Shown in pieces: positions 2,881-49,407 of a stretch of 49,407 nt of DNA; position 1 is the stretch's first letter, and each line of letters opens with the position of its first letter. The notes below the pieces were generated by a model. The model did not search any database, had not been told where the DNA came from, and worked only from the letters and a program-made list of their open reading frames with translations. The stretch comes from a virus. Where the stretch lies: IMG/VR virus record IMGVR_UViG_3300015203_000004, positions 1 to 49,407 of that record; one strand, given 5' to 3'. Both the position numbers and the translations under genes were made by a program.

Positions 2881-3104
2881 GCAGGTGGCCTACAGTCATT
2901 ACCGACCTTGAGGCCATAGCTATCCACGAAGATCGACGATCCTACCGAGACATCGGGGTAGCTTATGGAGTCTCCGCCATGACCGTATCAAACATCAAAG
3001 CTGGCAAGACCTGGAAGCATCTAGGTCTAAAGCCTACTACCAGAGGTAGGAACCACAAGTCCATTCCTAGAACTAGAGAGGATGAACACAATGCAAACAG
3101 CTAA
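2877..3104 (+). CDS. Small helix-turn-helix DNA-binding protein
   Basis: RSYRDIGVAYGVSAMTVSNIKAGKTW resembles an HTH. Confidence 0.45.
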   Translation: MSRWPTVITDLEAIAIHEDRRSYRDIGVAYGVSAMTVSNIKAGKTWKHLGLKPTTRGRNHKSIPRTREDEHNANS

Positions 3105-3420
3105 CCTGCCCATACCGTTCGGCGACGACATTGTAATCATTGAGAAGGAGAGAACGAATGTCAGCACAGGAGGACTCTATTTACCAGAGACAAGATTCGC
3201 AGACGAAAAACTTCGAGAAGGAACTGTTCTGGCTGTCGGACCTGGAATTTTGTACCCAGACGGTACTCGTTCCCCCGTGCAAGTGCAGCCAGGAGAGCAA
3301 GTCATCTTCTCCCGCATGGCAGGCATTGAGATCAAATACGAGCAAGGATCTTACTTAGTTCTCAGTGAGCGTTCCATCCTCGCAGTTCTTGGAGAGGCTC
3401 AATACGATGACGTGGAGTAA
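3082..3420 (+). CDS. groES: GroES/Cpn10-like co-chaperonin
   Basis: Aligns by eye to GroES: DDIVIIEKE, STGGLYLP (mobile loop), GTVLAVGPG, VQPGEQVIFS, YLVLSERSILAVL. Confidence 0.75.
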   Translation: MNTMQTANLPIPFGDDIVIIEKERTNVSTGGLYLPETRFADEKLREGTVLAVGPGILYPDGTRSPVQVQPGEQVIFSRMAGIEIKYEQGSYLVLSERSILAVLGEAQYDDVE

Positions 3421-4719: not shown

Positions 4720-4916
4720 ACGTAGCGGCAATCATATCTCAAGTAGCTGGCTTGTCCATCCTAGCATCAGATGCGACCTTTCAGACGTCTCTAACAACGC
4801 TCTTTGGATCAGATGGTCCGAAGATTGTAGCGGCGATAGGACTAATCTCCCTCATAGCCTCCACGGTTCTCCGCATTGTCGGATCCCCCTCGACTTCAAC
4901 AGGAGTACCCAAATGA
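4707..4916 (+). CDS. Putative holin (small two-TM membrane protein)
   Basis: Hydrophobic segments AAIISQVAGLSILA and IVAAIGLISLIASTVLRIV; sits upstream of the amidase. Confidence 0.45.
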   Translation: MHKLDVAAIISQVAGLSILASDATFQTSLTTLFGSDGPKIVAAIGLISLIASTVLRIVGSPSTSTGVPK

Positions 4917-5170
4917 CGCTTTCAAACTATTTCACTCTTGCCAGTCAGTTCTTCTTCAAGAAGACCCCTACGTTTGTCTTTCGTCTAGGTCCTGACAAGG
5001 TTTCTGTTGCTGTTTCAGCAGCTACGAGCGCACTGCCCCTAAGTATCGGCTTCAGTCAGGCCCTCCAACTTGTTAGCCTCATTGCCGGTAATGCGACGGC
5101 AACCCCTTTCACTGCCGGATTCTTAATCAATGGAGATATCGAAGTCACTGTTACCATCTCTAAGATCTAA
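4913..5170 (+). CDS. Hypothetical protein in lysis cassette
   Basis: ATGA-coupled 85-aa ORF between holin candidate and endolysin. Confidence 0.4.
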   Translation: MTLSNYFTLASQFFFKKTPTFVFRLGPDKVSVAVSAATSALPLSIGFSQALQLVSLIAGNATATPFTAGFLINGDIEVTVTISKI

Positions 5171-5700
5171 TGGACATCAAGAGTATTAGTTATCCTGCAC
5201 CGGGGGCGATGGCCCCCCGGTCCGTAGGGTTAATTACAGATTTCATTATTCATCATACCGCCGGTAATCCTAACCAGACCCCCCTTGAAATAGACGCAGA
5301 GCACAGAGCACGCGGCATGGCGATGATCGCCTATAACTGGGTGATAACCCCAGACGGGGCTACTTATGAGGGACGTCCTATTGCTTATGAGTCTGCTGCC
5401 ACTTATGGCCGTAACCCTGAGTCTGTATCTGTGGCTCTCACTGGAAACTTCCAATCCAACGATAAGGGATATACAGGTCCCCCAACCGTTCCACAGATCG
5501 TATCTCTAGAGAAACTCTGTCTCTATATCCACGTTACTCGCCCATCTATCGCCCGTACTATCGGTCATCGCGATGTAGCCCCCATGTTTTACCCAAGTAA
5601 TCAGGGGGACTACTCAACGGCCTGTCCGGGTGACAAACTCTATAACCTCATCCCTGAGATCAAGAAGTATGTGATGGACTCTCATCACGGGAGAATGTAA
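5170..5700 (+). CDS. Endolysin, N-acetylmuramoyl-L-alanine amidase (Amidase_2/PGRP type)
   Basis: FIIHHTAG, AYNWVITPDG, GHRDV, ACPG zinc-ligand pattern. Confidence 0.8.
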   Translation: MDIKSISYPAPGAMAPRSVGLITDFIIHHTAGNPNQTPLEIDAEHRARGMAMIAYNWVITPDGATYEGRPIAYESAATYGRNPESVSVALTGNFQSNDKGYTGPPTVPQIVSLEKLCLYIHVTRPSIARTIGHRDVAPMFYPSNQGDYSTACPGDKLYNLIPEIKKYVMDSHHGRM

Positions 5701-5961
5701 ATGGACTTTGGCGATCTTTACATGAACAAAGAGGTTTTCCTCTTGCAAGTCACAGAGGAAGCGGTCATCATCTTCAATACCTCTCGTGGGGAGACACAAG
5801 TCACGGCCTTCACTCACTCTCAATGGGGTCACCTATGTAAGGCAGTAGAGGACATGAAGGAAGAACTAAAAGCAGATATGAAGGCCCTTCCAGGTAACAC
5901 AGAGAATACTCTTAGAAGGCCCCTACTCAGTGAGATATCATTTAAGGACTTCCCAAAATAA
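5701..5961 (+). CDS. Hypothetical protein (small terminase candidate by position only)
   Basis: 86-aa ORF abutting TerL (ATAATG overlap). Confidence 0.3.
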   Translation: MDFGDLYMNKEVFLLQVTEEAVIIFNTSRGETQVTAFTHSQWGHLCKAVEDMKEELKADMKALPGNTENTLRRPLLSEISFKDFPK

Positions 5962-7565
5962 TGTCAGATGACTTCTTCGACTTCTTAGAGACAAATGAAG
6001 AAGCAATAGTCCCTGATGAACAAGCTACTTTGGTTGAACCGAAGTGGCTTTTCTCGTTGTGTAAGGATACACTTGGGATGAGGGATATGATGCCTCAGCC
6101 GCATTATGACCTTTGTAATATCTTCGAGAGTGCTGTAGGAGACTGTCAGTTCAGTGGAAAATCCCAAAAACTCATTATGGTTGGAGTACCGCGAGGATCG
6201 TTCAAAACGTCTATCGCAACTGAGGGATTACCTCTCGGCGTCCTTAAACGTAATCCAAACGCTAGAATACTCCTTGACTCCTTCAGACATGATGTATCAA
6301 AAGAACGCCTTAGCGCGACTGCTGGACACATCACAAACAATACTGCTTTCCATAGACTTTATGGTAATGACTGGAAGCCAGCCTTCCGGGAAGCCGCCTG
6401 GAGTGACAGCAGAATAACCATATCTAAACGGACTAAGATTCTTAAGGAACCGTCCATAGACACCTCGGGTGTGGACAGATCGAAGACCGGAAGCCACTAT
6501 GATCTCATCATTGCGGACGATCTTGTCACGGACACTAATATTTATACGGCTAAAAGTAGACAAAAAGTTTACGATCATATTATGGATTTGTTACCTATTC
6601 TGGAACCTGGCGGAACTCTTGTTCTTATCTTCACCCGCTGGCATACGGACGATGCATATGGGAAAATTATTAGAATTGATGAGGATAGAGTTAGGAACGG
6701 AAAACCTCCCTTCTTCGAGAAACTAATACGCTCTTGTTTCGATGGCCCCAACGGACTCTACTTTCCCAGTAAGCAAGACTTTGAGTTTCTCTGTAATAAG
6801 CGAGAGCAACTTAAAGAACGTAAGTTCTCCTGTCAGTATCTCAACAACCCGATATCTGATAGTGATAGAACTTTTAAGATGGACTGTCTCCAGGAGCCTG
6901 ACTTTCAGTTTTACTTATCAGACGGTCAAGGAATAGTAAAAACGAATGATGGACAATACCCCGTCTACACCACAATGGCCTGGGACACCGCAGGAAGTAA
7001 GTCAACTGCTAGATCGGATTACCACGGACTTACAGTGGTTGGAACGGATCTCTTCTCCAGGTGGTGGATCCCCGTGGCTGAAGGTGTTAAGGGAACTCCG
7101 ACGGAAGTCGTCAATAGAGTCGTTGCCCATATCCTTACCTACAGACCACAGGTTCTCCTGATTGAGGCAGTCGGATCCTATGCCCATTGGGCAGATCATG
7201 TCTATGCTAGACTTGAACCTCTCGGCATCTCTCTCCAGATTGAAGAGATTAGTCCGCATGGGCAACCGAAAGAAGCGCGTATCGAGCAACTAGAGCCCCT
7301 ATGGACAGCAAGACGCATATTTATTCAGAAGGGACTGCATGAACTCATTAATCAACTTGATTCTTTCACTCCTACTTCTTTACCCGATCATGATGATGTC
7401 ATTGATTCTCTTGCAATGCATTTGGGTTTTACTCGCCCTGGTGACGATAACGTCAGAAACTCAGGTCCGGTTAACGTCGTGGATCAAGAATGGGTTAAAA
7501 GACGATTAAGAGTACAGGGACAAATCGGAGGAGTCTGGTCCAGAGGTACCAGATGGGCAACTTGA
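5961..7565 (+). CDS. terL: Terminase large subunit
   Basis: VGVPRGSFKTS (Walker A-like), YDLIIADDLV (Walker B), AWDTAGS and DDVIDSLA nuclease-domain acidic motifs. Confidence 0.85.
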   Translation: MSDDFFDFLETNEEAIVPDEQATLVEPKWLFSLCKDTLGMRDMMPQPHYDLCNIFESAVGDCQFSGKSQKLIMVGVPRGSFKTSIATEGLPLGVLKRNPNARILLDSFRHDVSKERLSATAGHITNNTAFHRLYGNDWKPAFREAAWSDSRITISKRTKILKEPSIDTSGVDRSKTGSHYDLIIADDLVTDTNIYTAKSRQKVYDHIMDLLPILEPGGTLVLIFTRWHTDDAYGKIIRIDEDRVRNGKPPFFEKLIRSCFDGPNGLYFPSKQDFEFLCNKREQLKERKFSCQYLNNPISDSDRTFKMDCLQEPDFQFYLSDGQGIVKTNDGQYPVYTTMAWDTAGSKSTARSDYHGLTVVGTDLFSRWWIPVAEGVKGTPTEVVNRVVAHILTYRPQVLLIEAVGSYAHWADHVYARLEPLGISLQIEEISPHGQPKEARIEQLEPLWTARRIFIQKGLHELINQLDSFTPTSLPDHDDVIDSLAMHLGFTRPGDDNVRNSGPVNVVDQEWVKRRLRVQGQIGGVWSRGTRWAT

Positions 7566-7594
7566 TTGCATTGTTAACACATTCTTGATACACT
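7566..7594 (+). promoter_or_regulatory. Sigma70-like promoter TTGCAT-N17-TACACT directly after the terL stop
   Basis: TTGCAT 7566-7571, 17 nt, TACACT 7589-7594, followed by TAGAGG as at 204; AAAGGAG RBS at 7609. Confidence 0.45.
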
Positions 7595-7620
7595 TAGAGG
7601 GAATTCTTAAAGGAGTCCCT

Positions 7621-7914
7621 ATGAATAATGATCAGAAGCGTCCGGGCGGGATCAAGACGCCTGTAAAGAGCCTTTTTCAGATGCTAGGTCATGAGGGCGG
7701 ATCTCTTTCGTCTCTCCCAGTGAAGCGTCTTGATGCGGCACAGCAATCAGTCGGCGGAAAAAAGTCTGGGGGCAAGCAAGGCATTAGTATTTCCGGTAAA
7801 GTTGGAGATATTAGCACGAGTGTCGTTATTCCATCTGTCGGAACGCAAAAAAGTAATCTCAAACGGCAGATGTCAGGTCCTGCTAACCCCCCGCAAAATA
7901 AGAAAAAGGGTTAA
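7621..7914 (+). CDS. Basic, Gly/Lys/Ser-rich small protein
   Basis: ATG 7621 preceded by AAAGGAG; disordered basic composition. Confidence 0.5.
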   Translation: MNNDQKRPGGIKTPVKSLFQMLGHEGGSLSSLPVKRLDAAQQSVGGKKSGGKQGISISGKVGDISTSVVIPSVGTQKSNLKRQMSGPANPPQNKKKG

Positions 7915-7916
7915 AA

Positions 7917-8168
7917 ATGGCTTTTAAGAAGAAACTTGATGCTTCTAAGAAGGTTGCTCTCAAAGAAAGCGGCCACAAGGCCAATAAAGAGGGTAAACAT
8001 ATCCCCAAAGTGGGTGCGGGACCTGATGAGAAGGTTGCGAAGATGCATAAAAAGCAAATGCATGCGCCTGCCAAGGAAGGCAGCAAGAAAATGGACATCC
8101 CCTACGGAAAACACCCGGTCAACGAGAAGGCCGGACCGATGAAGAAGAAGCATAAGAAGGCAAAATGA
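7917..8168 (+). CDS. Lysine-rich (histone-like composition) small protein
   Basis: About 30 percent Lys; KKKHKKAK C-terminus; ATGA coupling to next gene. Confidence 0.5.
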   Translation: MAFKKKLDASKKVALKESGHKANKEGKHIPKVGAGPDEKVAKMHKKQMHAPAKEGSKKMDIPYGKHPVNEKAGPMKKKHKKAK

Positions 8169-10771
8169 AGGGGCTCAAATCTTTTATAACGAGTTTGGTT
8201 ATATCGTTCTCTTTGATAGCTCCGACTTTAGCTCTAGCGGATTACCAGACGCTCTCAGTAGTGGGTAACCCTCTAACTTCTGCTACTGCTCCATACCTTC
8301 TCCTAAACAACATGACGGGACAATCTGCCTGTAGTGTGACCGTTGCTTCCTTCGGGGGATCAATTTCGGTCGAGGGCCTATACAGAAATACGACTAACTC
8401 TCAATGGACTGCCCCCTTAACAGTATATTCCCCCGATGGGACAACTACTGTCGGCACTACAATCACGGCACCAGGGAGTTACATATTCAACTGCGGCACG
8501 ATGACCTCGGTTCGAGCTGATGGTACCTCTACTACGGGAACACCGACAGTTGTACTTAATGCTACTGGAGGTGTTAACGTAATAGCTAAGATCCCCGGCG
8601 CTAACGGGGGAACAGTAACGAGTGTCTCTGGAACGGGCAACATTTCAAGTACGGGGGGAACAGCCCCCGTTATTTCTATTACCTCTGCTCCTACCTTCTC
8701 AGGCAATGTAACCGTAGGTAATCTGACGGATACGCCCCTTACTCCAGGTAATTGCGTCCAAGCCGGAACAGGTGGCCTGCTTACTACTATAGCGGGAGCA
8801 TGTGGGACCGGAAATGGAACTGTTACTTCTGTTACTGCTACAGGTCCTGTTACCTCCTCTGGAGGCACAGCACCGAATATAGCCTGTGCTACATGTGTAA
8901 CCGGAGTTTCAGGCACGGGAAACATCTCTTCAACCGGAGGTACGACTCCGGTAGTGTCTATCACTTCCGCCCCTACCTTCTTAAATGTTACTGATTCGGC
9001 TTTAACATCTGGTAGATGTGTACAGGCAGGAACAGCCGGTATTCTCTCCACCATCGGAGTCGCATGCGGAACCGGCAACGGCACAGTAACGTCTGTGACG
9101 GCCTCCGGTAACTTAGCCTCCTCCGGTGGCACTACCCCTAATATCACCGTAACCAATGCTCCAACCTTTACGGGGGCTCTCTCTGCTCTGTCCCTTACCG
9201 GGACAGGACTAACTTCAGGAAATTGTCTACAAGCCGGAGTTGGGGGACTCATAGGTAATACAGCCTTCGCCTGCGGTTCTGGGAACGGTACGGTTACTTC
9301 TGTTACTGCATCTGGAAATCTAGCTTCTAGTGGCGGGAACACACCGAATGTAACAGTGACAGACTCGCCTACCTTCGCTGGTACGGTTACTGCTACTACT
9401 AACATTGTAGATTCTGCTTTAACCATAGGTCGTTGTGTACAGACAGGAACTGCGGGAGTATTTACCAATACTGCTTTCGCCTGTGGGTCGGGAAATGGTA
9501 CAGTTGCCTCAGTTTCTGGGGGAACTAACATAACCACGTCCGGGACGGCGGTGAACCCCATTATTAATACAGTTGCCTCTCCCACATTCTCTGGAACGGT
9601 AACGGCTACCACTAATATTATTGATTCTGCCTTAACCTCGGGGAATTGTCTACAAGCGGGGGCTAGCGGCCTCATACAAAATATAGCGGTAGCTTGCGGC
9701 ACGGTCACATCAGTTACAGCCGGGTCAAATATCGTTATCGGAGGTACGTCAGCAGCCCCGACAGTTGCTATTACTGCATCGCCCACCCTCACTAACATGA
9801 CTCTCACTGCTTTAGCGACAGCCGGTGTTAATTGCGCTCAAGTTGGATCAACGGGACTATTCCAGCTTCCCGGAGGAACCAACATCGGCGGCTGCCCCAT
9901 CAATGCTACTAATGCAACTTTTGTTATTCCTGCTCAGGGGGGGAGCGTTTCGGTTTCCACCCTAAACTTCAGCGCGTTCCCGAAGAACGGTCTCCCAGTT
10001 ACTATAGATGATGGTACGCATGCTATGTACGGTCTTATTACTGCGGGTGCAAATACCGCGACATGGACTGTTACTAACCTTGGGTTAACACTCGGTTCTG
10101 TCGGTAATACAATGGCATCCGGTGCTCTAATCTATCCAGGAGCCTCATCAATTCCCACGAACCCAACTCAGACTTCTTTTCTCTCCGGTTCCGGAACGTA
10201 CACGACTCCAGCAGGCGTGAAATGGGTTCGTATTTTCGCAGTCGGCGGCGGCGGCGGCGGCGGAGGTAGCAATGCTACAGGCGGAACCGGAGGAACTGGC
10301 GGTAACACTACCTTCGGAACCTCGCTCATCGTGGCTAACGGAGGCACCGGGGGCATTGAAGGTAGTGCGGCAGCCGGCGGAACCGGCGGAACCGCGAGCC
10401 TAGGTACTGCAGTCGGCCTCGCTGTCACTGGTGGCGGAGGATCTCCTTACTACCTCGGAGGAGGCGGAACCGGAGGATCTTCTTGCCTAGGCGGCGCGGG
10501 GTCAGCAAGTGGATCAAATAGCAGCAGTGTAGCCGGTAGTCCCGGAGCTACAAACACTGGTGGTGGCGGCGGCGGGGCTAACGGTTCCACTGCAGGATCT
10601 ACCGGCGGCGGATCCGGGGGCTGTGTTCAGGCTGTAATAACTGCTCCATTAGCCACCTATGCTTATGCAGTCGGTGCCGCAGGAACTGCGGGTACGGCAG
10701 GAACTAGTGGATTCGCAGGGGGCGCAGGCGGATCTGGTATACTGACTATCGAAGAGCACTATAACTACTAA
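8165..10771 (+). CDS. Signal-peptide-bearing repeat protein (fibre-like) with C-terminal glycine-rich domain
   Basis: MKGLKSFITSLVISFSLIAPTLALA/DY; about 7 repeats with paired Cys; C-terminus VKWVRIFAVGGGGGGGGSNATGGTGGTGG... Confidence 0.7.
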   Translation: MKGLKSFITSLVISFSLIAPTLALADYQTLSVVGNPLTSATAPYLLLNNMTGQSACSVTVASFGGSISVEGLYRNTTNSQWTAPLTVYSPDGTTTVGTTITAPGSYIFNCGTMTSVRADGTSTTGTPTVVLNATGGVNVIAKIPGANGGTVTSVSGTGNISSTGGTAPVISITSAPTFSGNVTVGNLTDTPLTPGNCVQAGTGGLLTTIAGACGTGNGTVTSVTATGPVTSSGGTAPNIACATCVTGVSGTGNISSTGGTTPVVSITSAPTFLNVTDSALTSGRCVQAGTAGILSTIGVACGTGNGTVTSVTASGNLASSGGTTPNITVTNAPTFTGALSALSLTGTGLTSGNCLQAGVGGLIGNTAFACGSGNGTVTSVTASGNLASSGGNTPNVTVTDSPTFAGTVTATTNIVDSALTIGRCVQTGTAGVFTNTAFACGSGNGTVASVSGGTNITTSGTAVNPIINTVASPTFSGTVTATTNIIDSALTSGNCLQAGASGLIQNIAVACGTVTSVTAGSNIVIGGTSAAPTVAITASPTLTNMTLTALATAGVNCAQVGSTGLFQLPGGTNIGGCPINATNATFVIPAQGGSVSVSTLNFSAFPKNGLPVTIDDGTHAMYGLITAGANTATWTVTNLGLTLGSVGNTMASGALIYPGASSIPTNPTQTSFLSGSGTYTTPAGVKWVRIFAVGGGGGGGGSNATGGTGGTGGNTTFGTSLIVANGGTGGIEGSAAAGGTGGTASLGTAVGLAVTGGGGSPYYLGGGGTGGSSCLGGAGSASGSNSSSVAGSPGATNTGGGGGGANGSTAGSTGGGSGGCVQAVITAPLATYAYAVGAAGTAGTAGTSGFAGGAGGSGILTIEEHYNY
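8597..9898 (+). repeat. About 7 tandem coding repeats (about 70 aa / 210 nt period)
   Basis: Recurrent ..LTSGNC(V/L)QAG.GG......ACG(S/T)GNGTVTSVTA.G...SSGG..PN...T.APTF.G.. Confidence 0.8.
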
Positions 10772-10776
10772 GGATT

Positions 10777-12078
10777 ATGATGAGAACACTAATACTTGGT
10801 TTAGCGTTGGCAGTAATACCGACTTCGGTCCTAGCGGATCAAGCCTTTAGTATTCCTTTCAATCAGAACTTCCTCTCTCCAATCTATCTTCAGTCTGTGC
10901 CACCAGGTCAATGTCTTACGACTACGACTTTTAGTAAGGTTGTCGGAACAGGTTCAGCATGCGGCTCTGGAGGAGGTGGAGGCGGGGTTACATCAGTAAC
11001 AGCCGGCTCATCGGGTAATATGTCGTTCTCTCCTACTACGGGGGCAGTCATCGGTGATATTACTGAGAATCCTATATTCACTGGACAGATCAACTCAACC
11101 CTTGGTAACGCGGGAGCAGCTCTTCAAACCTCTGGCAACTATCCCATAGCGTGGAAGACGAGTTTCGGTGACTCTGTTAATCAGAATTCATCTAATGCTT
11201 TTTCTATAGCAAACATTCGTAATGACACCTGGGGTATCTATGATCTTACTTCAAGTTCCCTATTAATTGCTATGGATAGTACGGGAGCTCTCGGGGTCAA
11301 CAACCTGAACGATGCTAACCTAACCCCCGGGAACTGCGTCCAGGCGGCTGCTAATGGGCGACTCACCACTACGGGTTCTGCCTGTGGTGGAGGCGGTGGG
11401 GGAGCAGTTACATCAGTAACAGCCGGCTCATCGGGTAATTTAACAGTATCCCCCACCACGGGGGCAGTGGTTGCAGATGTAGTTGCAGCTCCCACCTTTA
11501 CCGGGTCTGTGACTTCGACCAGTTTATTTAACCCAGCTTTCATAGCTACTAATACCCAGTTTGCTCAATGGTTGGGCTCTACCGGAGACACCTCTAAACT
11601 TACCGCAGATGGTACACTCTTAGTAGGAGGTGTAGTAACCAACAGTGCCTTCGGTATCAAAGACGTAACTAACTCCAACCAACTAATAGCAGTTGATACA
11701 GGCGGAGAACTCGGAGTTAGGCAGGGAGTATTTGCTCAATCGCTCAATGCTTCGAATCTTTCTCCCGGCATGTGCTTGAAGGCAGTTGGATCCGGTCCTC
11801 AGTATTCAGTTGCATCGACGAATGAGCATTGCGGTGGACAACATGGTAATGTTACTATTACAGCATCTGCGGGGTCTTGCGTTGCTGGGTCACCCATCAC
11901 ATTTACCACAGCCGCCCCTGGTACCCCTGACATCGTAATGTCTACTTCTCCCGTAGTCGGAGATACAGCCGCCCCAACCTCCATCTCGCCCACGGGTTTT
12001 ACACCCGAACTTTGCAGCACAACGAGTAATGCAGCCGCCACAGTCTACTGGATCGCTACGTCAGGATCGAATTTTTAA
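10777..12078 (+). CDS. Signal-peptide-bearing fibre-like protein, paralogous modules to 8165 and 12688 genes
   Basis: MMRTLILGLALAVIPTSVLA/DQ; IPFNQNF..PPGQCL..SACGSGGGGGGVTSVTAGSSGN module twice. Confidence 0.65.
   Translation: MMRTLILGLALAVIPTSVLADQAFSIPFNQNFLSPIYLQSVPPGQCLTTTTFSKVVGTGSACGSGGGGGGVTSVTAGSSGNMSFSPTTGAVIGDITENPIFTGQINSTLGNAGAALQTSGNYPIAWKTSFGDSVNQNSSNAFSIANIRNDTWGIYDLTSSSLLIAMDSTGALGVNNLNDANLTPGNCVQAAANGRLTTTGSACGGGGGGAVTSVTAGSSGNLTVSPTTGAVVADVVAAPTFTGSVTSTSLFNPAFIATNTQFAQWLGSTGDTSKLTADGTLLVGGVVTNSAFGIKDVTNSNQLIAVDTGGELGVRQGVFAQSLNASNLSPGMCLKAVGSGPQYSVASTNEHCGGQHGNVTITASAGSCVAGSPITFTTAAPGTPDIVMSTSPVVGDTAAPTSISPTGFTPELCSTTSNAAATVYWIATSGSNF
10987..11439 (+). repeat. 33-nt exact direct repeat pair (10987..11019 and 11407..11439), internal duplication 420 bp apart
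   Basis: gttacatcagtaacagccggctcatcgggtaat present twice. Confidence 0.9.
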
Positions 12079-12079
12079 C

Positions 12080-12679
12080 ATGAAGAAGTACTCAGTTCTC
12101 GCTCTTTCAACCATCCTAGTTCTTGCCCCCATCTGTTCATTAGCCGACAATGATGGTCAGAAGGTCACGAATCCGACTAGCACCGCCTACACTGGGTTCG
12201 TTACCGCAATAAATCTGAATCCCGCCTTCACCGGCTACACTCCTTCTATCAACTTCGTCGCGGGTGGCAGTGGAGCTTATACACTAACTCTGCAGACTAA
12301 CCAAAGTCTGATAGCGGCACCTATCACAACTGGAACTAACTCCTTCATTTCCATTAAGGGCTTCTCTATCGAGTGTCTCCCATACAATCCAGCATTAGTC
12401 GGCTCTACGGGTTACCTGTATTCTGCTGAATCCAATGGAGTCGCGGGCGGAACGGTAACGATTCATGAGTATAAACCATCAGGTGCTGCGGTTACGGTCG
12501 GGACGGTAGTTCTTCCTACTAGTCCTCATAACGGTCCCTACGTTAATACTGCGGTATCTACCCTGATTAGCCCATATGTCCCCACTACGGGATCGGTATT
12601 CGATGCCTATGTGACGTCATTCAATGCAACTCCTACGGTACAATACAATAATTGCGTTGTTACTGCAACACTTCAGTAA
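12080..12679 (+). CDS. Signal-peptide-bearing protein, unknown function
   Basis: MKKYSVLALSTILVLAPICSLA/DN; start set at ATG 12080 just after the previous stop. Confidence 0.6.
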   Translation: MKKYSVLALSTILVLAPICSLADNDGQKVTNPTSTAYTGFVTAINLNPAFTGYTPSINFVAGGSGAYTLTLQTNQSLIAAPITTGTNSFISIKGFSIECLPYNPALVGSTGYLYSAESNGVAGGTVTIHEYKPSGAAVTVGTVVLPTSPHNGPYVNTAVSTLISPYVPTTGSVFDAYVTSFNATPTVQYNNCVVTATLQ

Positions 12680-12687
12680 GGTGATTC

Positions 12688-13263
12688 ATGAGTAACTACA
12701 CGAGAAAAGTAGTCCAGAGCATTGTAGCAACAGTGGCTTTATTACTGTCTTGCGCACCTAGCTCCGCTCAGGCTATTCAAGCCTACACTATCCCGTTCAA
12801 TACTAACTTCGCTAACTCGGTGTTGCTGGGGGCTATCCCATCGGGTCAGTGCTTATCAACTTCAACTAGCGGCCTTATTGTAGGAGCAACCTGCAGTACG
12901 GGGCTTGTCCAGTCAGTAACTGCTGGAACGAATGTAACCGTAACTGGAACTGCTACCAACCCCATCATCAATGCCTCTGGAGGCGGTGGAGGTTCGGTAG
13001 TAAACTATCAGAATGGGATTCTTTTAGGGGGCCTTAAGGTTCAATCAGGACTAGTTAGTACATCTGCTACTACTCCCTTCCATGGAACCATGACTTTCGG
13101 TACTGCGTATGTCTCACCTCCTATCTGCACAGCAACGTACATTGATCCCACAGATGGGGGATTATCGTCGGCTTACATCCATTCTCAGAGCACCACCAAC
13201 GTGATTATAACGGATGGTAGCAGTGCGGGTTTGTCTTATAATGTCATGTGTGTGGGATTTTAA
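12688..13263 (+). CDS. Signal-peptide-bearing protein, N-terminal paralog of the 10777 gene
   Basis: VATVALLLSCAPSSAQA/IQ, then AYTIPFNTNF...IPSGQCLSTS matching AFSIPFNQNF...PPGQCLTTT; AAGGTGA RBS. Confidence 0.6.
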   Translation: MSNYTRKVVQSIVATVALLLSCAPSSAQAIQAYTIPFNTNFANSVLLGAIPSGQCLSTSTSGLIVGATCSTGLVQSVTAGTNVTVTGTATNPIINASGGGGGSVVNYQNGILLGGLKVQSGLVSTSATTPFHGTMTFGTAYVSPPICTATYIDPTDGGLSSAYIHSQSTTNVIITDGSSAGLSYNVMCVGF

Positions 13264-13317: not shown

Positions 13318-15219
13318 ATGAAGAAAAATTTCCATAGTGAGACTGATTATCAACCTGAAGCTCCTGTAAATCTTCCTATCCCTAAAATAAGCGATGCTAC
13401 ATGGCAGTCTCTTGGTGAGACTGCCATGATTCTTATAAACATCAATTTAGGGAATAGATCGGAACTAGACGAATCATTGAATATATGGAACTCCATGTAT
13501 GAGATGAGAGTCACGCCTAGAGATTCACCGTGGCCGAATGCTTCTAATTTATCAATACCCTTGATACCCGCTCAGGTGGAAGAATTTGTCGCTAGGGTTG
13601 GTGGTTCAGTGTTATTGCCTCGTCCTTTCAGTGTACGTGGCAATGATAGTAACTCTTCTGTTTATAGTCATTCTGTGGAACAGTTTTACAACGGCAAGTA
13701 CACCTCGAACAGGTGGGATGATGCCTTCTTCACCGGGATTCATCTCTCCGCCCGCGATGGGGTCACCATCATGGAAATCATGTGGGAACTTTCTACTTAT
13801 GAGAGAATCTTCATTGCCGACTCAATGGACGACCAGGGTCAGCCTACAAAGATAAAACAGAAGGTCAAGTTCACTCAGTACAATGATCCAAAGCTTAGGC
13901 CGGTAGAACTCAGAGACTTTCTTCTAGTACCGGCACATGCGACTTCGATTGAAGAAGCGGATGCTTGCTGTCGAAAAGAATACATGAGCGAAGCAGCCCT
14001 ACGAAAGCTAGTCAATTCGGGTGTTCTTGATGAAGATCGAGTCGAGTTCGCCCTTTCTTATGTCTCTACCGGGCAGGGAGACTTGTCTTATGATAGGCAA
14101 GGTGATTCCACATATACTATCTCAGGTAAAATCAATGTAACTGATGTGGCAGTCGCGCCTCCCGACGGAGTCAAGATGGAGAGAGGTCCTATCACGGTCT
14201 GGCGCATCCACACCAATCAGTACGACCTTGATAACGACGGAGTCCCCGAAGAGAACATACTGTGGGTGCACGACCGCAGTAGAACTCTCCTCGGATACAC
14301 ACCTTTCGAGTACTTACAGGGAAGACCATTCAAATCTCTAGCGCCCTTTCCTCGTCCTAATAGATTCTATGGATTCAGTATTCCAGAGCGCCTCAAGGAC
14401 CTTCAAGATGAACTGAACGCGCAACACAATGGCCGCCTCGACCTCATGGATTGGGCTCTCAATCCTACCACGATCAAAGAACCTAACGTCCGTCTTCGAG
14501 AAGAAGATATGGGTATGGGTCCCGGCATCATGATTGACGCCAAACCAGGATCCATTAGCTTCCTGACGGCTCCCGAAGTTCCTCAGTCCTCCTGGACTGA
14601 AGAGCAGTCAATTATGATGTATGCGCAGGCCATTATGGGTGCTCCTCAAGCAATGGGTCCCCAACAACAACAGTCATCGGGAGGTAATAGAAGTGCGAGA
14701 TCGGCCCAGCAGAATGCGGCTGTCGCGGGTTTACCTACGAATATTGTCCTCAAGAGAGTCCGTTCATGGATGCAGGAGTGTTTCGAGTATATTCATGGTC
14801 TTTACATCCAGTATGGCAAAGACCAAATGGAGGCAGTTGACCATAGCCCCGGCGGTGCTCAAAAAATTGAACTACCGAAGGAAATCCTCTCACTGGATTA
14901 CACTCTGTCCATCGCAGGTCAGGGGGGTCCTCTCGATAAGGAAAATAGACGAAATGACCTTCTCATGTTTGCCTCTTTCCTCCAGAGCAACCCTCTCGTT
15001 CAAGGTAATCTCCCCCGGATCTGGGCTCTCACGGCTCTTATAGCTGAAACTTATGATCTACCTGAAGTGACGAAGTTCATTGGTACTATGGAAGAAGCTC
15101 AACAACAGGGACAACAGCAGGCCCAGCAGCAAGAGATGCAACAGAAGATGCAGTTCGCTCTCGCTGCTATGAATCACGGAAAGGTGGAATCAAGTGGCAA
15201 GCCACCTGGCGGAGCATAA
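13318..15219 (+). CDS. Portal protein (by size and position)
   Basis: 633 aa, first gene of the scaffold-capsid block, Q-rich acidic C-terminus; no motif verified. Confidence 0.55.
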   Translation: MKKNFHSETDYQPEAPVNLPIPKISDATWQSLGETAMILININLGNRSELDESLNIWNSMYEMRVTPRDSPWPNASNLSIPLIPAQVEEFVARVGGSVLLPRPFSVRGNDSNSSVYSHSVEQFYNGKYTSNRWDDAFFTGIHLSARDGVTIMEIMWELSTYERIFIADSMDDQGQPTKIKQKVKFTQYNDPKLRPVELRDFLLVPAHATSIEEADACCRKEYMSEAALRKLVNSGVLDEDRVEFALSYVSTGQGDLSYDRQGDSTYTISGKINVTDVAVAPPDGVKMERGPITVWRIHTNQYDLDNDGVPEENILWVHDRSRTLLGYTPFEYLQGRPFKSLAPFPRPNRFYGFSIPERLKDLQDELNAQHNGRLDLMDWALNPTTIKEPNVRLREEDMGMGPGIMIDAKPGSISFLTAPEVPQSSWTEEQSIMMYAQAIMGAPQAMGPQQQQSSGGNRSARSAQQNAAVAGLPTNIVLKRVRSWMQECFEYIHGLYIQYGKDQMEAVDHSPGGAQKIELPKEILSLDYTLSIAGQGGPLDKENRRNDLLMFASFLQSNPLVQGNLPRIWALTALIAETYDLPEVTKFIGTMEEAQQQGQQQAQQQEMQQKMQFALAAMNHGKVESSGKPPGGA

Positions 15220-17775: not shown

Positions 17776-18723
17776 GTGTCTAACTTGATCAATAGCAGAA
17801 CTTATTTCCAAGCTCAGACGAAGCAGCTTAACAAGATATATACGAACTCGACCCCGACTGAGCCGTTGCGTTACCCGTCAGTTTTTAACTCGTACGAAGG
17901 CGATCCGGCGCATGGCTTCCTTCAAATGATGTCCCTCGTTGGCTTTGGTACCTTGAATGAGTTGACAGAAGGCCAGGCGGCTTCCGTTGATGCTACTAAA
18001 GAGGGCCTTATTAGTTTCTTCCCATATGTCTCTTATGCCTTGAAGTATCAAGTTACGAAGATCATGATGAGAGAAGATGCGAAACGTATTATCCCGAAAC
18101 TTCCGGGTTTGCTCCGCTACTCCAGTGACCAGACGAAAGAGTTTTTGTTCTGGAACGTCTTCAACTTAGCGTTTAACCCGTCTATCCCGTTGGCTGATGG
18201 TCAACCTCTCTGTAGCAACGCGCATCCTCTTCAAGGTTCGTCTTCACAACCACTGGTGTCGAGCTATAGCAACTTCCTCGGCGCAGTCTCACTGACGGTT
18301 GAAACGCTTCAACAAGCATACATCCTTATGGCGAACATCCCGGACGACCGTGGCCTTATCACTCACCGCACTCCTTCACAGTTGATCTTCCCATTAGGTC
18401 TTCAGCAGACGGCGACGGAACTTCTTTCCTCGAGCTACTACCCAACGAGCAACGAGAATCGCGTTAACGCGGTTGCTGGTTCGATCACCCCAATGCCGGT
18501 GGTTTACCTCACGGCTGCCGCCGGTGGCCCGTTTCCGTGGTTCGTACTTGCTGGTAAGGGTGAGCCCGGCCAGGACTCGCACTCAGTCTTCGCTTCAGTT
18601 AAGTGGGATGAGCAGCGTTCATGGATGGATGAGCAATGTGAGAACATGTTCCAACAGACTGAGTTCCGTGCAGTATGGGGCACGGTCGACGCGAGAGGCG
18701 TCGTTGGTTCCGCCGGAGCGTAA
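17776..18723 (+). CDS. Putative major capsid protein
   Basis: GTG start with GGAGA RBS, 315 aa, position after scaffold, followed by a hairpin; general resemblance to HK97-type coat N-terminal region, not verified. Confidence 0.5.
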   Translation: MSNLINSRTYFQAQTKQLNKIYTNSTPTEPLRYPSVFNSYEGDPAHGFLQMMSLVGFGTLNELTEGQAASVDATKEGLISFFPYVSYALKYQVTKIMMREDAKRIIPKLPGLLRYSSDQTKEFLFWNVFNLAFNPSIPLADGQPLCSNAHPLQGSSSQPLVSSYSNFLGAVSLTVETLQQAYILMANIPDDRGLITHRTPSQLIFPLGLQQTATELLSSSYYPTSNENRVNAVAGSITPMPVVYLTAAAGGPFPWFVLAGKGEPGQDSHSVFASVKWDEQRSWMDEQCENMFQQTEFRAVWGTVDARGVVGSAGA

Positions 18724-18793: not shown

Positions 18794-20407
18794 ATGCCGA
18801 TCAAGCAGATTCAATCCAAATCACGGTTGCCCGAGTCTCTTCAGTATAATGCATGGGCTCCTCTTCGTGTTACCCCCGTTGTTGTGCCGGCTTTCGCTCA
18901 GAATTCAACTGCGATTCAATCGATAAACCCTCTCGGTCTTAACTATAAGATCACGCATCTCTCATACACATTGAGCAACTTTGCGATAGTTCCCGCCGGG
19001 TCTAACCCCTCTGCGGCTCCTGCAGTTCCTCTCGCTTCTGCAGTAACCTATGGAATCCTCGCCGGCACTACGGTTACCAATACCGGGTCTACCACCATCA
19101 ACGGCGACCTCGGCTTAACTCCCGGCTCTGCTATAACTGGTTCCCCGACCGTAACTGGTGCAACGAATGTCACCAACCCGGCTGCTGTTGCGGCGCAGAA
19201 TGATCTTACTGCTGCGTACAATAATGCGGCGGGCAGAACTCCTTCGATCTCTGTGCCTTCTGACATCGGCGGTTTAACTCTCACCCCAGGTGTCTACTCG
19301 GCTGCATCTTCGCTAGGGATAACTGGCACAGTCACGTTAAATGGTCAAGGTAATGCCAATGCGGTTTGGATATTTCAAATCCCTACCTCACTGACGACAT
19401 CAGTCAGTGGCGCAGTCGTATTAACGAATGGTGCAAGCGCAAAGAATGTCTTCTGGCAAGTTGGTAGTTCTGCGACTTTGGGGGCTACCTCCACCTTCAA
19501 CGGTACCATTCTTGCACTGACGACGATTACGGCTAATACCGGCGCAATCATCAATGGTAGACTGCTCGCTCGTAACGGCGCAGTCAATCTTGCGGGTAAC
19601 ACCATCACTGTCCCGGCTGCCCCTTCCCTTCCAGTTCCTTTCGGTGTTCCCTCCGGCAACAATTTCGCCGCCGGTAAACTTGCTTTGAACATTGTAAATG
19701 GCGTTGGTGCATACGAAGGAGCCGGAGCAGCTTCCTCATACGCATATCTTACTCTCGGAGGTACATTCGTAACTGGTGACAAGATCACTGTGTCGATCCT
19801 AGGTATTCCATACGTTTATACAGTTTCCGCTCGCGGCGTTAGTTTACAGTATATCGGTCAGGCACTTACTACATCATTTAATCGCCAAACGTTGAACTCA
19901 ACAGCAGCGGGCATTTTCCCCGGTTTCAACACCTTGTATCGTGCAAACTCACTCGGAGCCGAAGTCGTCATTCAGACCCTAGCCTACAGTACGGCTACTC
20001 CTTCCTTCACGGTTTCTACGAACAGCGTCGCCGGTACAGTTACCGCTAGCGGAGCAACAATGGTAGCCGGAGTTGCTGGCGCTCTCCCAGGTGTGCCTGC
20101 GTCCGATACGACGAGCATTGGCATCGTGCCTTCGCAAGTTGGAGCAGTCGGTACTGCACTATTCCCAGTTGACATCGTTCTTCCGCTCTTCAATGCGAGT
20201 CAAGCAGATCTTGGAGGCACTATTTATGCCATTGAGAACTTTGATGTTAATTGGCCTACGTTAGCTGAAATGACCCTTCGCATTACCGCTGACGGAGTGG
20301 TCGCAGGCGGGTTGAATGTCATTCTTTGGGGCGTCCCGAATGATATTAGTCCAATGATGCCGGAGGAAGCTAACACAGCCTTCCATCTTTCCCAAATCAT
20401 TCTCTAA
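18794..20407 (+). CDS. Structural-module protein with DUF3494 ice-binding-like beta-helix domain
   Basis: YGILAGTTVTNTGSTTINGDLGLTPGSAITG..., AAQNDLTAAYNNAA, GLTLTPGVY, NAVWIFQI, LTNGASAKNVFWQVGSSATLG, FNGTILA, INGRLLARNGAVNL match IBP-1/DUF3494 hallmarks in order. Confidence 0.8.
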   Translation: MPIKQIQSKSRLPESLQYNAWAPLRVTPVVVPAFAQNSTAIQSINPLGLNYKITHLSYTLSNFAIVPAGSNPSAAPAVPLASAVTYGILAGTTVTNTGSTTINGDLGLTPGSAITGSPTVTGATNVTNPAAVAAQNDLTAAYNNAAGRTPSISVPSDIGGLTLTPGVYSAASSLGITGTVTLNGQGNANAVWIFQIPTSLTTSVSGAVVLTNGASAKNVFWQVGSSATLGATSTFNGTILALTTITANTGAIINGRLLARNGAVNLAGNTITVPAAPSLPVPFGVPSGNNFAAGKLALNIVNGVGAYEGAGAASSYAYLTLGGTFVTGDKITVSILGIPYVYTVSARGVSLQYIGQALTTSFNRQTLNSTAAGIFPGFNTLYRANSLGAEVVIQTLAYSTATPSFTVSTNSVAGTVTASGATMVAGVAGALPGVPASDTTSIGIVPSQVGAVGTALFPVDIVLPLFNASQADLGGTIYAIENFDVNWPTLAEMTLRITADGVVAGGLNVILWGVPNDISPMMPEEANTAFHLSQIIL

Positions 20408-21739: not shown

Positions 21740-22531
21740 ATGATGGACGAAGCCTCTACCAAGAGGTTTACTGCCGCAGATGTCGCACAACTCGCAACTC
21801 GTGCTCAAAATCAGGTTGCCTTTGAAGTTGACCATCCCGAGAGCACACAGAACATACTTCTTGTCTCCGGGCAACAGGAATATCAACTTATTGACCTTAT
21901 GAAGTTACTGAGAGTTTACACTGCGGTGTTCAACTCTGATAATCCTAACTTCCCTTTTACCTTCAAACAAGAACTCATAGCTACGAACATCGGCACACTA
22001 GAAGGTGACGTCATTCAAAGATATGACAATTCCTCTGGCATAGTGCCGCAGACCTCGAAATATATAGCTCAACAGCCGGAGTTGTACCCGTATGCCGGAG
22101 GTCCTAATAACGCTCGGGGTTTCGGGAATAATAGCTGTGAGCCCTATCCTACAAATATGCCGTGGAGTAGCTGTAATAGTCGTCCCTCATACTACTTGAG
22201 AGGGGGCTATATCGGTGTTGTACCCATTCCGTTGCAGTCAAACCCACCAACTTATCTGATGATCGACTGTACCCCGGCCCCGCCTGCGCTAGTTAATACC
22301 ACGGATAATTCTATTTACCCTGATATCTTCCTAGAAGCTATCGTTTGGAAGATGATTGAGTATGCGTCTTACTCGGATCATAATTCCGCACAAATGCAAG
22401 CTGCTCAGATGTACCAAAACGAAGTGACGATGAAGATTAACCCGTGGATACAACGTTTACAGGCTACTAGGCCGAAAACTATGGTTCCGATCACTAAGCG
22501 TACTTATTTCAGACGCGGAGGCATCCGATGA
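21740..22531 (+). CDS. Hypothetical tail/adaptor-module protein
   Basis: 263-aa ORF by position; no motif. Confidence 0.4.
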   Translation: MMDEASTKRFTAADVAQLATRAQNQVAFEVDHPESTQNILLVSGQQEYQLIDLMKLLRVYTAVFNSDNPNFPFTFKQELIATNIGTLEGDVIQRYDNSSGIVPQTSKYIAQQPELYPYAGGPNNARGFGNNSCEPYPTNMPWSSCNSRPSYYLRGGYIGVVPIPLQSNPPTYLMIDCTPAPPALVNTTDNSIYPDIFLEAIVWKMIEYASYSDHNSAQMQAAQMYQNEVTMKINPWIQRLQATRPKTMVPITKRTYFRRGGIR

Positions 22532-23937
22532 CCGTTCCTACTGGGCCAGTCTACTACCCCTTTGCGGTAGTTCCTCCGACATCTAGCAGCAATGTCATCC
22601 CGAATGATCTCATCATTGAGACAGTCTATCCGGGTATTATCCTTGACGGCGCTGAGATTGGGTCAGTTTACTTTGTTATGCGTGAAGTCTCTGGCTGCAC
22701 CTGGTTCGTAGTGAATGCAGACTTCAATGAGACTACCCTACAATGGACACAAGAGGACCCCACTAATCCTAATTTACCGTCATATGCTATGGAAATTTGC
22801 GGGTCTGGCACCTGGAACTACTATTCTGCTGTCCCAACACTTGTTCCCGGCACTACGGTCGCCTGGGTTCTCATGAACCAAATAACTGCAAATGGTCTAT
22901 CTATCATTGAGCCTTTGCCAATCACAAACTCCTCAAATGCTATGCAGCAAATCCTCGCTACATGGAACGCTGGCTCTGCAGTACAACTAACCGCTCGTTA
23001 TGTGGATGTAACTGATCTCTCTTCAGCCTCATCCTCTCTACTGGATAACTTGGCTGTCAATAGTGTCTCTAAGTGGGCCGTTGATAAGACGGGAACCCTG
23101 ACAGTCGGCATTATCCCGTCCGCACGTATCTCTGGCCTAACTCCCTTCCCCGGGTTCAATAACGTGACCTTAACTGGTACGACGACTATGACCGGGCCTG
23201 TTAACATGACGAGTACGCTAGATGTTACTGGAGCCGTAACCGCTCATTCATCCCTCACAGCAGATAGCACATTCTATGCAACCGGATTGACTACTCTTCA
23301 TGGTGCAGTCGTAGCTGATAGCACTGTTACTGTCACAGGGCTCACTGATCTCAATGGCGGCCTTAATGTAACGGGTGGAGAGACTCAAACTGGTGGGCCG
23401 GTCACTATAGGCGGTATCCTCACTACGAACAGCAACTTCGTTGCAAACGGTCTTGCTCAGTTATCAAACGCTACTGTGAGTGGGAATCTCACTGAGGTAG
23501 GCGGTGGCCCCGTCTTTCCATTGACTTCACCAGATGCGAGTGTAACTGTTGCTACTGTTGGACACGGCTATACAGTCGAAGTTACGAGTCCCTATTTACC
23601 GACTGTACGAGCACAAATCAGAGTTCCTTTGAGCACAACCGTGCCTTTTAGTCAGTCTCTGTCCCTGCCGACTCTGCCCGGACCCGGTTCACGAGCATAC
23701 AATCTCTATGCTTTTGCCGGATGGCCGTGTAATACTGGAGGAACGATGACTCTATCTGGTTCCGGCGCAACCTGGGAATCTACGACTGTGTATAGCAACT
23801 TCAGTGGTATGGATACCATTGATCTGATTGGTACTGCTGTGGGAGGACAGACTCCGTCTGTAACCTGGTCTGTACCAAATACAAATGGGTCTGCGACCTC
23901 GAACATTGCTCTTTCTATTACAGCATACCCGGTGTAA
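22528..23937 (+). CDS. Fibre/spike-like protein with short beta-helix-type repeats
   Basis: LTGTTTMTGPVNMTSTLDVTGAVTAHSSLTADSTFYATGLTTLHGAVVADSTVTVTGLTDLNGGLNVTGG. Confidence 0.5.
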   Translation: MTVPTGPVYYPFAVVPPTSSSNVIPNDLIIETVYPGIILDGAEIGSVYFVMREVSGCTWFVVNADFNETTLQWTQEDPTNPNLPSYAMEICGSGTWNYYSAVPTLVPGTTVAWVLMNQITANGLSIIEPLPITNSSNAMQQILATWNAGSAVQLTARYVDVTDLSSASSSLLDNLAVNSVSKWAVDKTGTLTVGIIPSARISGLTPFPGFNNVTLTGTTTMTGPVNMTSTLDVTGAVTAHSSLTADSTFYATGLTTLHGAVVADSTVTVTGLTDLNGGLNVTGGETQTGGPVTIGGILTTNSNFVANGLAQLSNATVSGNLTEVGGGPVFPLTSPDASVTVATVGHGYTVEVTSPYLPTVRAQIRVPLSTTVPFSQSLSLPTLPGPGSRAYNLYAFAGWPCNTGGTMTLSGSGATWESTTVYSNFSGMDTIDLIGTAVGGQTPSVTWSVPNTNGSATSNIALSITAYPV

Positions 23938-49308: not shown

Positions 49309-49407
49309 ACATTACTATACATTTGCTTAACATTATCAAGATTACTTGACTGATTCTGCACGGTCGCAGCGCAATGTAAAGATTTCTTTGCTGTTCTTTG
49401 CCATATC
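49309..49407. repeat. Right copy of 99-bp exact direct terminal repeat
   Basis: Identical to 1..99. Confidence 0.95.

Follow-up and report, generated by a model that had tools for sequence, protein, structure and literature searches.

Between the large terminase gene (terL) and the portal gene of an uncultured virulent podophage lie four genes whose products combine tail-fiber modules with N-terminal Sec signal peptides. The DNA analyzed here is the IMG/VR record IMGVR_UViG_3300015203_000004, positions 1 to 49,407 (49,407 nucleotides; called the window below). Positions 7566 to 13263, the terL-portal junction, encode two small basic proteins and four leader-bearing proteins of 868, 433, 199, and 191 amino acids (aa), referred to as p868, p433, p199, and p191, and this cassette takes up ~10% of the 49-kb genome. 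We tentatively interpret the junction as a conserved, rapidly reshuffled cassette of tail-fiber-type receptor-binding proteins that are made as Sec preproteins and join virions at lysis. The first-pass annotation of the window had placed the terL stop at 7565, the portal start at 13318, and, between them, two small lysine-rich proteins and four open reading frames (ORFs) beginning at 8165, 10777, 12080, and 12688; all of these were located at those positions (Table 1).

Each of the four proteins opens with a basic n-region (a K or R within the first 2 to 7 residues), an uncharged hydrophobic core of 10 to 14 residues, and an AxA-type cleavage site: TLALA/DY in p868, SVLA/DQ in p433, CSLA/DN in p199, and SAQA/IQ in p191, where the slash marks the predicted cleavage. 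The Sec leaders that had been called on all four proteins by eye were thus recovered by a heuristic scan and by family conservation. The best 10-residue Kyte-Doolittle windows in the leaders scored 2.3 to 3.2, and a rule-based scan of 215 ORFs of at least 50 aa found strong leaders on real genes only in the four cassette genes and in one other gene (639-1808, described below). Within the p868 family (24 leaders), leader length ranges from 24 to 36 aa, the n-region carries a net charge of +2 to +5 in 24/24, position −1 is Ala in 24/24, position +1 is Asp in all, position −3 is A, V, G, S, C, or L, and a Pro or Gly occurs at −8 to −4 in 23/24. In p868, positions −1 and +1 are A25 and D26, neither of which varies in the family alignment, and residues 2 to 17 form a helix detached from the following N-domain in the AlphaFold2 (AF2) model. 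AxA leaders, though of diverged sequence, are likewise present in every full-length p433-family and p199-family member. Because the same pattern is kept across divergent leader sequences, selection appears to act on signal-peptide function and not on sequence. Leaders are kept in ~60 homologs from independent assemblies. These features make it highly probable that the cassette proteins are exported, a prediction that we consider well supported; after leader removal, the expected semitryptic N-terminal peptide of p868 would begin DYQTLSVVGNPL.

Other types of leader and other starts were considered. No twin-arginine motif was found in the cassette leaders, and a conserved lipobox ([LVI][ASTVI][GAS]C) is present in none of the four proteins. 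A lipoprotein signal was rejected for p191, whose LLSC is not conserved in P0078, P0080, or the ortholog in the relative L001, and for p199, whose Cys19 is not conserved in relatives. Leaderless isoforms made from internal starts were also rejected, since no conserved ATG, GTG, or TTG with a Shine-Dalgarno (SD) sequence lies near the cleavage sites. SD-like sequences precede the cassette starts themselves, and homologs begin at the same position.

A comparison of the junction among relatives had been suggested in the first-pass annotation, and it was carried out with the window and eight relatives, all distinct, whose terL products are at least 42% identical. One to four leader-bearing proteins were found at the terL-portal junction in all nine genomes. 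Contigs of this clade are ~42 to 50 kb long and share the order amidase, terL, two or three small basic ORFs, leader-bearing fiber gene(s), and SU10-type portal. Distant terL relatives (<30% identical) had no leader-bearing proteins at the junction; a leader-bearing 766-aa gene following the distant terL of L019 encodes a bacterial M1 aminopeptidase and was set aside as irrelevant. Within the clade, the content of the cassette varies. L003, whose terL is 82% identical, encodes a 608-aa protein, two leader-bearing p199-like proteins, and one p868-like protein in a different order; L002, L005, and L007 have a single fiber gene each; and L001 encodes a 257-aa leader-bearing p191 ortholog. In L014, the sole terL-portal gene (4805-6283) joins this kind of leader and N-terminus to another shaft and tip: behind the leader and what remains of the N-domain signature come a Pro/Thr-rich linker, a collagen-like repeat, and a ConA-like (Laminin_G_3) lectin domain. 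Across the family, the tips differ (Gly-rich, H-lectin, p199-type, ConA-like, and S74, the last being a Peptidase_S74 chaperone domain in P0048 of one relative), and each genome has one protein in which a conserved N-domain follows the leader. As read from these alignments, the N-domain is inherited vertically and the tips are swapped.

The predicted mature proteins have the architecture of fibers. The N-domain of p868, a β-sandwich, belongs to a family for which phmmer, run exhaustively against 1.84 billion representatives, recovered only 16 clusters. It directly follows the leader in every full-length member (start residue 21 to 34), is never leaderless, and is 26 to 75% identical across the family in the domain alignment. 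Fold matches of p868 to XepA/YomS and to the HFTV1 turret were weak (E of 4e-3 or worse) and were discarded as those of a generic β-sandwich, functionally uninformative. The N-domain is followed by a repeat shaft with canonical Cys-x15-Cys loops at residues 197/213, 285/301, 354/370, 424/440, and 495/511 and a divergent loop at 557/577; about seven repeat units had been counted by eye, in agreement with the motif counts given in Table 1. In all, p868 has 18 Cys, and Gly, Thr, and Ser make up 47% of its residues. Cys-paired repeats had been noticed in three of the four proteins, and p433 indeed contains two canonical loops and one divergent loop, and p191 contains one C-x13-C loop. An N-terminal IQAYTIPFN motif is common to p191 and p433; p199 has no similarity to the other three cassette proteins in the window. 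The repeat regions have predicted local distance difference test (pLDDT) values of <50 in AF2 monomer models, as is usual for obligate trimers, and the confident parts are residues 30 to 135, 580 to 660, and 670 to 868 of p868 and residues 345 to 430 of p433 (pLDDT of ~90). The small β-domain behind the shaft of p868 recurs one to three times in homologs and is repeated in P0001, P0008, P0011, and P0012.

The C-terminal domains are of types found at the ends of phage fibers. The Gly-rich C-terminal domain of p868, also noticed at first reading, is real: a Foldseek search of BFVD matched it to uncultured-phage proteins 28 to 42% identical (E down to 7e-13), weaker matches are named "Glycine-rich domain-containing protein," and its signature (SGTYTTP...GGGGGG...E.Y) aligns with P0028, P0042, P0047, P0049, and P0055. 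The domain is common to leaderless and leader-bearing fibers of other phages. No Pfam family was matched at E ≤ 1 by residues 696 to 868, and none was matched by the whole of p868. The tip of p433 is a good match to the H-type lectin fold, with sugar binding putative. Its Foldseek matches at probability 1.0 (E of 1.5e-3 to 5e-3, target template modeling score up to 0.63) include phi297 gp61, LKA1 gp49, Helix pomatia agglutinin, SLL-2, the R1 pyocin fiber, and the Pam1 tailspike. With phi297 gp61, LKA1 gp49, the R1 pyocin fiber, and Helix pomatia agglutinin the modeled likeness is confined to this ~90-aa tip, and the rest of p433 is unrelated. There was no Pfam H_lectin match for p433, and sequence searches of the PDB with p868 and p433 gave no match. 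The p199 domain forms the C-terminus of a 1,254-aa fiber (P0002), and a p433-type tip ends P0005.

Because distant homologs with the repeats or the Gly-rich domain mostly have ordinary fiber N-termini with no hydrophobic leader, the modules can be regarded as tail-fiber modules and the leader as lineage specific. The two classes differ in cysteine content: among ~80 homologs, the median is 1.98 Cys per 100 aa for leader-bearing proteins, 79% of which have an even count, and 0.20 Cys per 100 aa for leaderless ones (Mann-Whitney p = 5e-12). The enrichment fits folding in an oxidizing compartment. Together with the clade-wide conservation, this association of leader and Cys supports the earlier proposal of fiber-like proteins with cleavable Sec signals and disulfide-stapled repeats.

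Leader-bearing fiber-like proteins were also found in the baseplate modules of myophages. P0055 and P0042 are encoded in E217-like baseplate clusters, where their genes adjoin sheath-initiator and wedge genes, and leader-bearing P0034 is encoded directly 3' of Baseplate_J and Mu_Gp48 in a Mu-like myophage. When aligned, P0055 and P0042 carry their leaders as clean additions of 17 to 18 residues before the motif IK[IV]SALP, which is the very N-terminus of the leaderless fiber P0049, encoded in a P22-like podophage structural module. Cleavage would thus regenerate an ordinary fiber N-terminus, and this is the main argument that the leader-bearing proteins are still virion fibers. Two of the three myophage contigs (L090, L091, and L092), as well as L001 and L002, come from SRA runs SRR290781xx-SRR290782xx, and leader-bearing fibers may be common in that environment.

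For the cassette, we propose the following route. Late in infection, the proteins would pass into the periplasm of the host (probably Gram-negative), lose the leader (at Ala/Asp in p868), and have their Cys pairs oxidized by host Dsb, giving one disulfide per repeat. Trimeric lectin-tipped fibers would form and would meet the cytoplasm-assembled podovirus particle only once holin and endolysin breach the envelope. Docking on the SU10-type adaptor or nozzle would be through the N-domain of p868, with p433, p191, and p199 branching off p868 or docking separately. Fibers are normally the last virion part to be added, and in model phages they can attach in vitro (P22 tailspike, T4 long fibers), so the lysis-time route is compatible with the normal order of assembly. 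A virion role is favored by the late structural-operon location of the cassette, its share of the genome, its receptor-binding-protein type of evolution, the vertically inherited N-domain, and the myophage examples. It is also conceivable, and we advance this still more cautiously, that periplasmic fiber building, with Sec export, signal peptidase trimming, and lysis-time attachment, operates in at least three unrelated lineages (SU10-like podophages and E217-like and Mu-like myophages).

The cassette can be compared with the conventional fibers of SU10 (gp12/gp13/gp16) and T7 (gp17). The window encodes an SU10-type portal and adaptor, the cassette proteins combine a conserved N-terminal part with variable lectin-type tips, and their repeat and tip modules are common to leaderless fibers of other phages. 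SU10 fibers have no leader and dock in the cytoplasm. In contrast to conventional fibers, the cassette proteins all have Sec leaders and contain ~10 times more cysteine, and their genes lie between terL and the portal gene, whereas the SU10 fiber genes follow the adaptor gene. Passages of the SU10 report describe an adaptor that carries fiber docks and fibers that dock by their N-termini on the adaptor or nozzle (PMC9509320); by analogy, the SU10-type adaptor of the window is likely the docking platform for fibers.

Several points weigh against assembly by this route. A cleavable Sec leader puts the proteins across the inner membrane from the assembling virions, and attachment after lysis would compete with dilution. 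To our knowledge, no tailed phage assembles its fibers via Sec export, and full-text searches of the literature gave no precedent for tailed-phage fibers with signal peptides, for exported receptor-binding proteins, or for Dsb-dependent fibers. The signal-peptide call comes from our own heuristic and from conservation, not from SignalP. The Cys statistic is phylogenetically nonindependent, the leader group being mostly one clade, and the leader-bearing myophage fibers are Cys poor, which excludes disulfide formation as the general purpose of the leader. Scans for a host among 185,579 GTDB genomes with terL and the p199 family gave no match. Finally, the adaptor gene is followed immediately by one for a leaderless fiber- or spike-like protein of 469 aa, so adsorption may not require the cassette proteins.

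This 469-aa protein also changes two statements of the first-pass annotation, which had seen no conventional fiber gene in the window and had ranked the cassette proteins as the best receptor-binding candidates by elimination. The first is doubtful, given that the ORF occupies the slot of the SU10 long-tail-fiber gene, and the second fails with it. In passages of the SU10 report, that slot, after the adaptor gene, is held by gp12 (PMC9509320). β-Helix-like repeats are visible in the sequence of the 469-aa protein. Its N-terminal two-thirds share 43% identity with the L009 ortholog, and its last ~110 aa are unalignable; a conserved N-terminus with a divergent C-terminus is, at the level of sequence, the classic pattern of a receptor-binding protein. 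The protein is probably a conventional tail fiber or spike, and the 616-aa ORF after it is probably the nozzle gene. By hhalign, the 469-aa protein has no relation to the p868 N-domain; one candidate relationship (BLAST, 31% over 134 aa) was compositional (hhalign probability of 0.1%) and was rejected.

The cassette proteins may instead be exported adhesins that are not virion parts and act in the periplasm, at the cell surface, or after being freed at lysis, with the 469-aa protein serving as the virion fiber. We regard this as a serious possibility, if a somewhat doubtful one. Exported adhesins and an envelope-side route of fiber maturation were also the two readings offered in the first-pass annotation. 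Possible roles are receptor masking on the dying cell or on debris, clumping of neighboring hosts or binding of matrix, by which progeny would reach new hosts, and phage exclusion. Cleavable leaders most simply mean a destination outside the cytoplasm, a conventional leaderless fiber candidate is present, and a further exported Cys-rich protein (639-1808 in the window; 2339-3739 in L001) implies that a program of protein export exists. On the other side, known exclusion and masking proteins are small and usually early, and the cassette fills ~10% of a virulent 49-kb genome, tightly packed between terL and the portal gene. Free receptor-binding fibers would block uninfected hosts too. No lipobox, autotransporter, or recognized C-terminal sorting signal was seen in the sequences, and the leader-bearing fibers in myophage baseplate modules keep the N-terminal motif of leaderless fibers.

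Phage proteins that reach the cell envelope or surface are known. T5 Llp, o-spanins, and lambda Bor and Lom are routed by Sec into the envelope, and T5 Llp and the spanins act there. PblA and PblB of Streptococcus phage SM1 are virion fiber proteins of a temperate Gram-positive phage that double as surface adhesins; they have no signal peptide and reach the surface via phage lysis, and they resemble the proposed adhesins in being phage fiber proteins that act outside the virion. A passage on the T4 antiholin RI describes it as periplasmic, with a cleavable signal peptide, and this exported protein likewise acts in the envelope (PMC8385771). Unlike the cassette proteins, RI, Llp, the spanins, Bor, and Lom are small, are mostly lipoproteins or regulators, and have neither a fiber architecture nor a hypervariable multigene cassette.

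A closer likeness in layout is found in the mosaic adhesive trimer (MAT) fibers of Bdellovibrio bacteriovorus, which are encoded by chromosomal genes and displayed on the predator surface (Caulton et al. 2024, PMC10769870). In both cases, a signal peptide is followed by a β-rich conserved N-domain (~130 aa in MATs and ~110 aa here), a phage-fiber-like shaft, which is trimeric in MATs, and swappable C-terminal tips, and both groups have S74 and non-S74 members (PMC10769870). By analogy, this shared layout tilts the interpretation toward a nonvirion adhesin. The two systems differ in that the cassette genes lie in the structural operon of a virulent podophage, in complete phage genomes and not in a bacterial chromosome, and in that no Cys-x15-Cys repeat is described for MATs (PMC10769870 does not contain the word "disulfide"). 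No MAT homolog was found among the 16 N-domain clusters, for which the examined contigs were all phage, or in the PDB searches; these involved no direct comparison with the MAT N-domain. The phage nature of the examined contigs and the lack of detected sequence homology to MATs count against the adhesin reading.

Improbably, the hydrophobic N-terminus could be no export signal at all and could serve as an assembly or anchoring helix on proteins that remain cytoplasmic, or membrane tethered on the cytoplasmic side, and assemble onto virions in the conventional manner. Assembly would then stay within a single compartment, as it does in all tailed phages studied, and the AF2 model does show residues 2 to 17 of p868 as a free helix. 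However, uncharged h-regions of 10 to 14 residues have the length of signal peptides, not of transmembrane anchors, and the positive n-region would orient the mature part outward. The −3/−1 rule and the Pro/Gly breaker are kept despite divergence, which is hard to explain without signal peptidase cleavage on the periplasmic side; Cys-pair enrichment is sensible only in an oxidizing compartment; and leaderless homologs do without such a helix. An artifact (miscalled starts, chance hydrophobic N-termini, or an unrelated bacterial insertion) might be suspected from the low-complexity composition (47% Gly/Thr/Ser in p868) and the long spurious antisense ORFs, but it is effectively refuted by the conservation data, that is, by SD-like sequences, shared starts, leaders in ~60 homologs, and synteny in nine genomes, together with the absence of any relative in GTDB bacterial genomes and a complete phage genome with a 99-bp repeat.

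The cassette genes are separated by gaps of −4 to +8 nucleotides. The first-pass annotation had given the cassette a promoter of its own, TTGCAT-N17-TACACT, and this did not hold up: the site has 7/12 sigma-70 consensus positions, is missing from the promoter-scan output, and has no second copy in the genome. Promoter-like sites in the region are not in excess over shuffles (10 observed versus 12.9), and the spacer is partly kept in the two closest relatives, L003 and L001, and not in L009. No terminator was found 3' of terL. With no supported promoter, no terminator after terL, and tight gaps, the cassette looks like a segment of the late operon. For the first small ORF, the most likely start is ATG 7621, after AAAGGAG, and not TTG 7585; its product has no Pfam or PHROG match. 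The second, Lys-rich product is 48 to 61% identical to products of small ORFs in L001 and L003, and two or three similar small basic ORFs occur at the same position in L001, L002, L003, L007, and L009. Both small basic proteins, which match no known family, are probably disordered, and they could be DNA-binding internal proteins. Within p868, a 442-aa antisense ORF (8479-9807, minus strand) is almost certainly spurious, since the Gly/Thr/Ser/Ala-rich repeats keep the opposite strand stop free.

Bases 1 to 99 of the window are exactly repeated at 49309-49407, a 99-bp direct terminal repeat that indicates a complete phage genome and reflects either circular assembly or short terminal redundancy. 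Accessory, lysis, and structural genes occupy the plus strand from ~0.2 to 35 kb, and replication genes (Pol A, SNF2 helicase, AAA_25 helicase-primase, ribonucleotide reductase, and PD-(D/E)XK nuclease) occupy the minus strand from 36 to 47 kb. None of the annotated ORFs was recognized as an integrase gene, and the window has no tRNA genes. A Gram-negative host would be consistent with the single-domain Amidase_2 endolysin and the SLT-type ejection protein. No cultured relative is known. Megablast and a tblastn search with p868 gave no match in a set of 50,697 phage records, in which the best portal match was 28% identical.

Four further genes of the window deserve mention. The fifth predicted exported protein, encoded at 639-1808, has 389 aa, 9 Cys, and the leader MKISTALLSLALAMTAC/IPASIA/DAS; it is possibly a lipoprotein, has no Pfam match, and has a leader-bearing, Cys-rich ortholog in L001 (2339-3739, 40% identical). 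A 150-aa protein encoded at 2084-2536, and also present in L001 and L009, contains a Peptidase_C39 domain (1.3e-06), the family of cysteine proteases that process bacteriocin leaders; the cassette proteins show no double-glycine leaders. A GroES/Cpn10-like cochaperonin gene lies at 3082-3420, with PF00166 recorded for its equivalents in L001, L002, L007, and L009. Right after the major capsid gene, a 537-aa ORF (18794-20407) encodes a leaderless protein with an Ice_binding/DUF3494 β-solenoid (PF11999, 6.5e-60, residues 88 to 272). The protein in that slot has only 293 to 297 aa in relatives, so the Ice_binding domain looks inserted into a conserved component of the virion, which may be a decoration protein.

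TABLE 1 Features of the window and of related myophage contigs (coordinates refer to the window unless a contig is named)
Feature	Coordinates	Strand	Evidence or remarks
Amidase_2 endolysin, single domain	5170-5700	+	Pfam
terL, left cassette boundary	5961-7565	+	phrog_38, 8e-68; PF17289
TTGCAT-N17-TACACT, proposed promoter	7566-7594	+	Unsupported as promoter
Small Gly/Lys/Ser-rich basic protein, 97 aa, no leader	7621-7914	+	AAAGGAG ribosome-binding site ahead of ATG 7621
Lys-rich (30% K) protein, 83 aa, no leader	7917-8168	+	Stop overlaps p868 start (ATGA)
p868, long leader-bearing fiber protein	8165-10771	+	
p868 signal peptide, residues 1-25, MKGLKSFITSLVISFSLIAPTLALA/D	8165-8239	+	Heuristic scan; AF2; conservation
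p868 N-domain, residues 26-135, β-sandwich with Cys56 and Cys110	8240-8569	+	AF2 pLDDT 70-87
p868 repeat shaft, residues ~150-577	8612-9895	+	7 VTSVTA half-units, 6 APTFTG motifs, 5 canonical and 1 divergent Cys loops
p868 small β-domain, residues ~580-660, FVIPAxGxxVxV...GNTMAxxA	9902-10144	+	pLDDT ~85
p868 Gly-rich C-terminal domain, residues ~683-868, SGTYTTPAGVKWVRIFAVGGGGGGGG ... EEHYNY	10211-10771	+	Foldseek BFVD
p433, leader-bearing fiber	10777-12078	+	Leader residues 1-20, two canonical and one divergent Cys loop, lectin tip (putative)
p433 H-type-lectin-fold tip (predicted), residues ~345-433	11809-12078	+	AF2 pLDDT ~90; Foldseek
p199, leader-bearing stand-alone tip domain	12080-12679	+	Leader residues 1-22, NLNPAFTG motif, invariant Cys99 and Cys192
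p191, short leader-bearing fiber	12688-13263	+	Leader residues 1-29, one Cys loop, C-terminal β-domain
SU10-type portal, right cassette boundary	13318-15219	+	PF23899 SU10_portal, 1e-25
HK97-like capsid protein	17776-18723	+	
SU10-type adaptor	21740-22531	+	PF24175, 5e-14
Leaderless 469-aa fiber- or spike-like protein	22528-23937	+	Directly after SU10-type adaptor gene
Putative nozzle, 616 aa	23885-25735		Follows 469-aa ORF; weak β-propeller hint
HNH endonuclease	27395-27847		phrog_826, 1e-36; inserted in structural/ejection-protein module
SLT-containing ejection protein	31273-33741	+	
Leader-bearing fiber-like proteins with Gly-rich C-termini, myophage baseplate modules	L090 10001-12013; L092 4674-6998; L091 10001-13174		

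Tailed-phage virions are thought to assemble wholly in the cytoplasm, and their fibers are engineered as determinants of host range. If the cassette proteins are virion parts, they would reveal an undescribed two-compartment assembly route that needs host Sec, signal peptidase, and Dsb, and hence new host dependencies; such a route would explain how disulfide-stapled fibers suited to harsh environments are made, and it would mean that engineers cannot always obtain functional fibers by cytoplasmic expression of the genes. If they are nonvirion proteins instead, ~10% of a virulent phage genome would be spent on exported lectin-tipped adhesins, a new form of host manipulation and a phage counterpart, perhaps a source, of the Bdellovibrio MAT fibers. 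In either case, annotation pipelines should no longer treat "signal peptide" and "tail fiber" as mutually exclusive.

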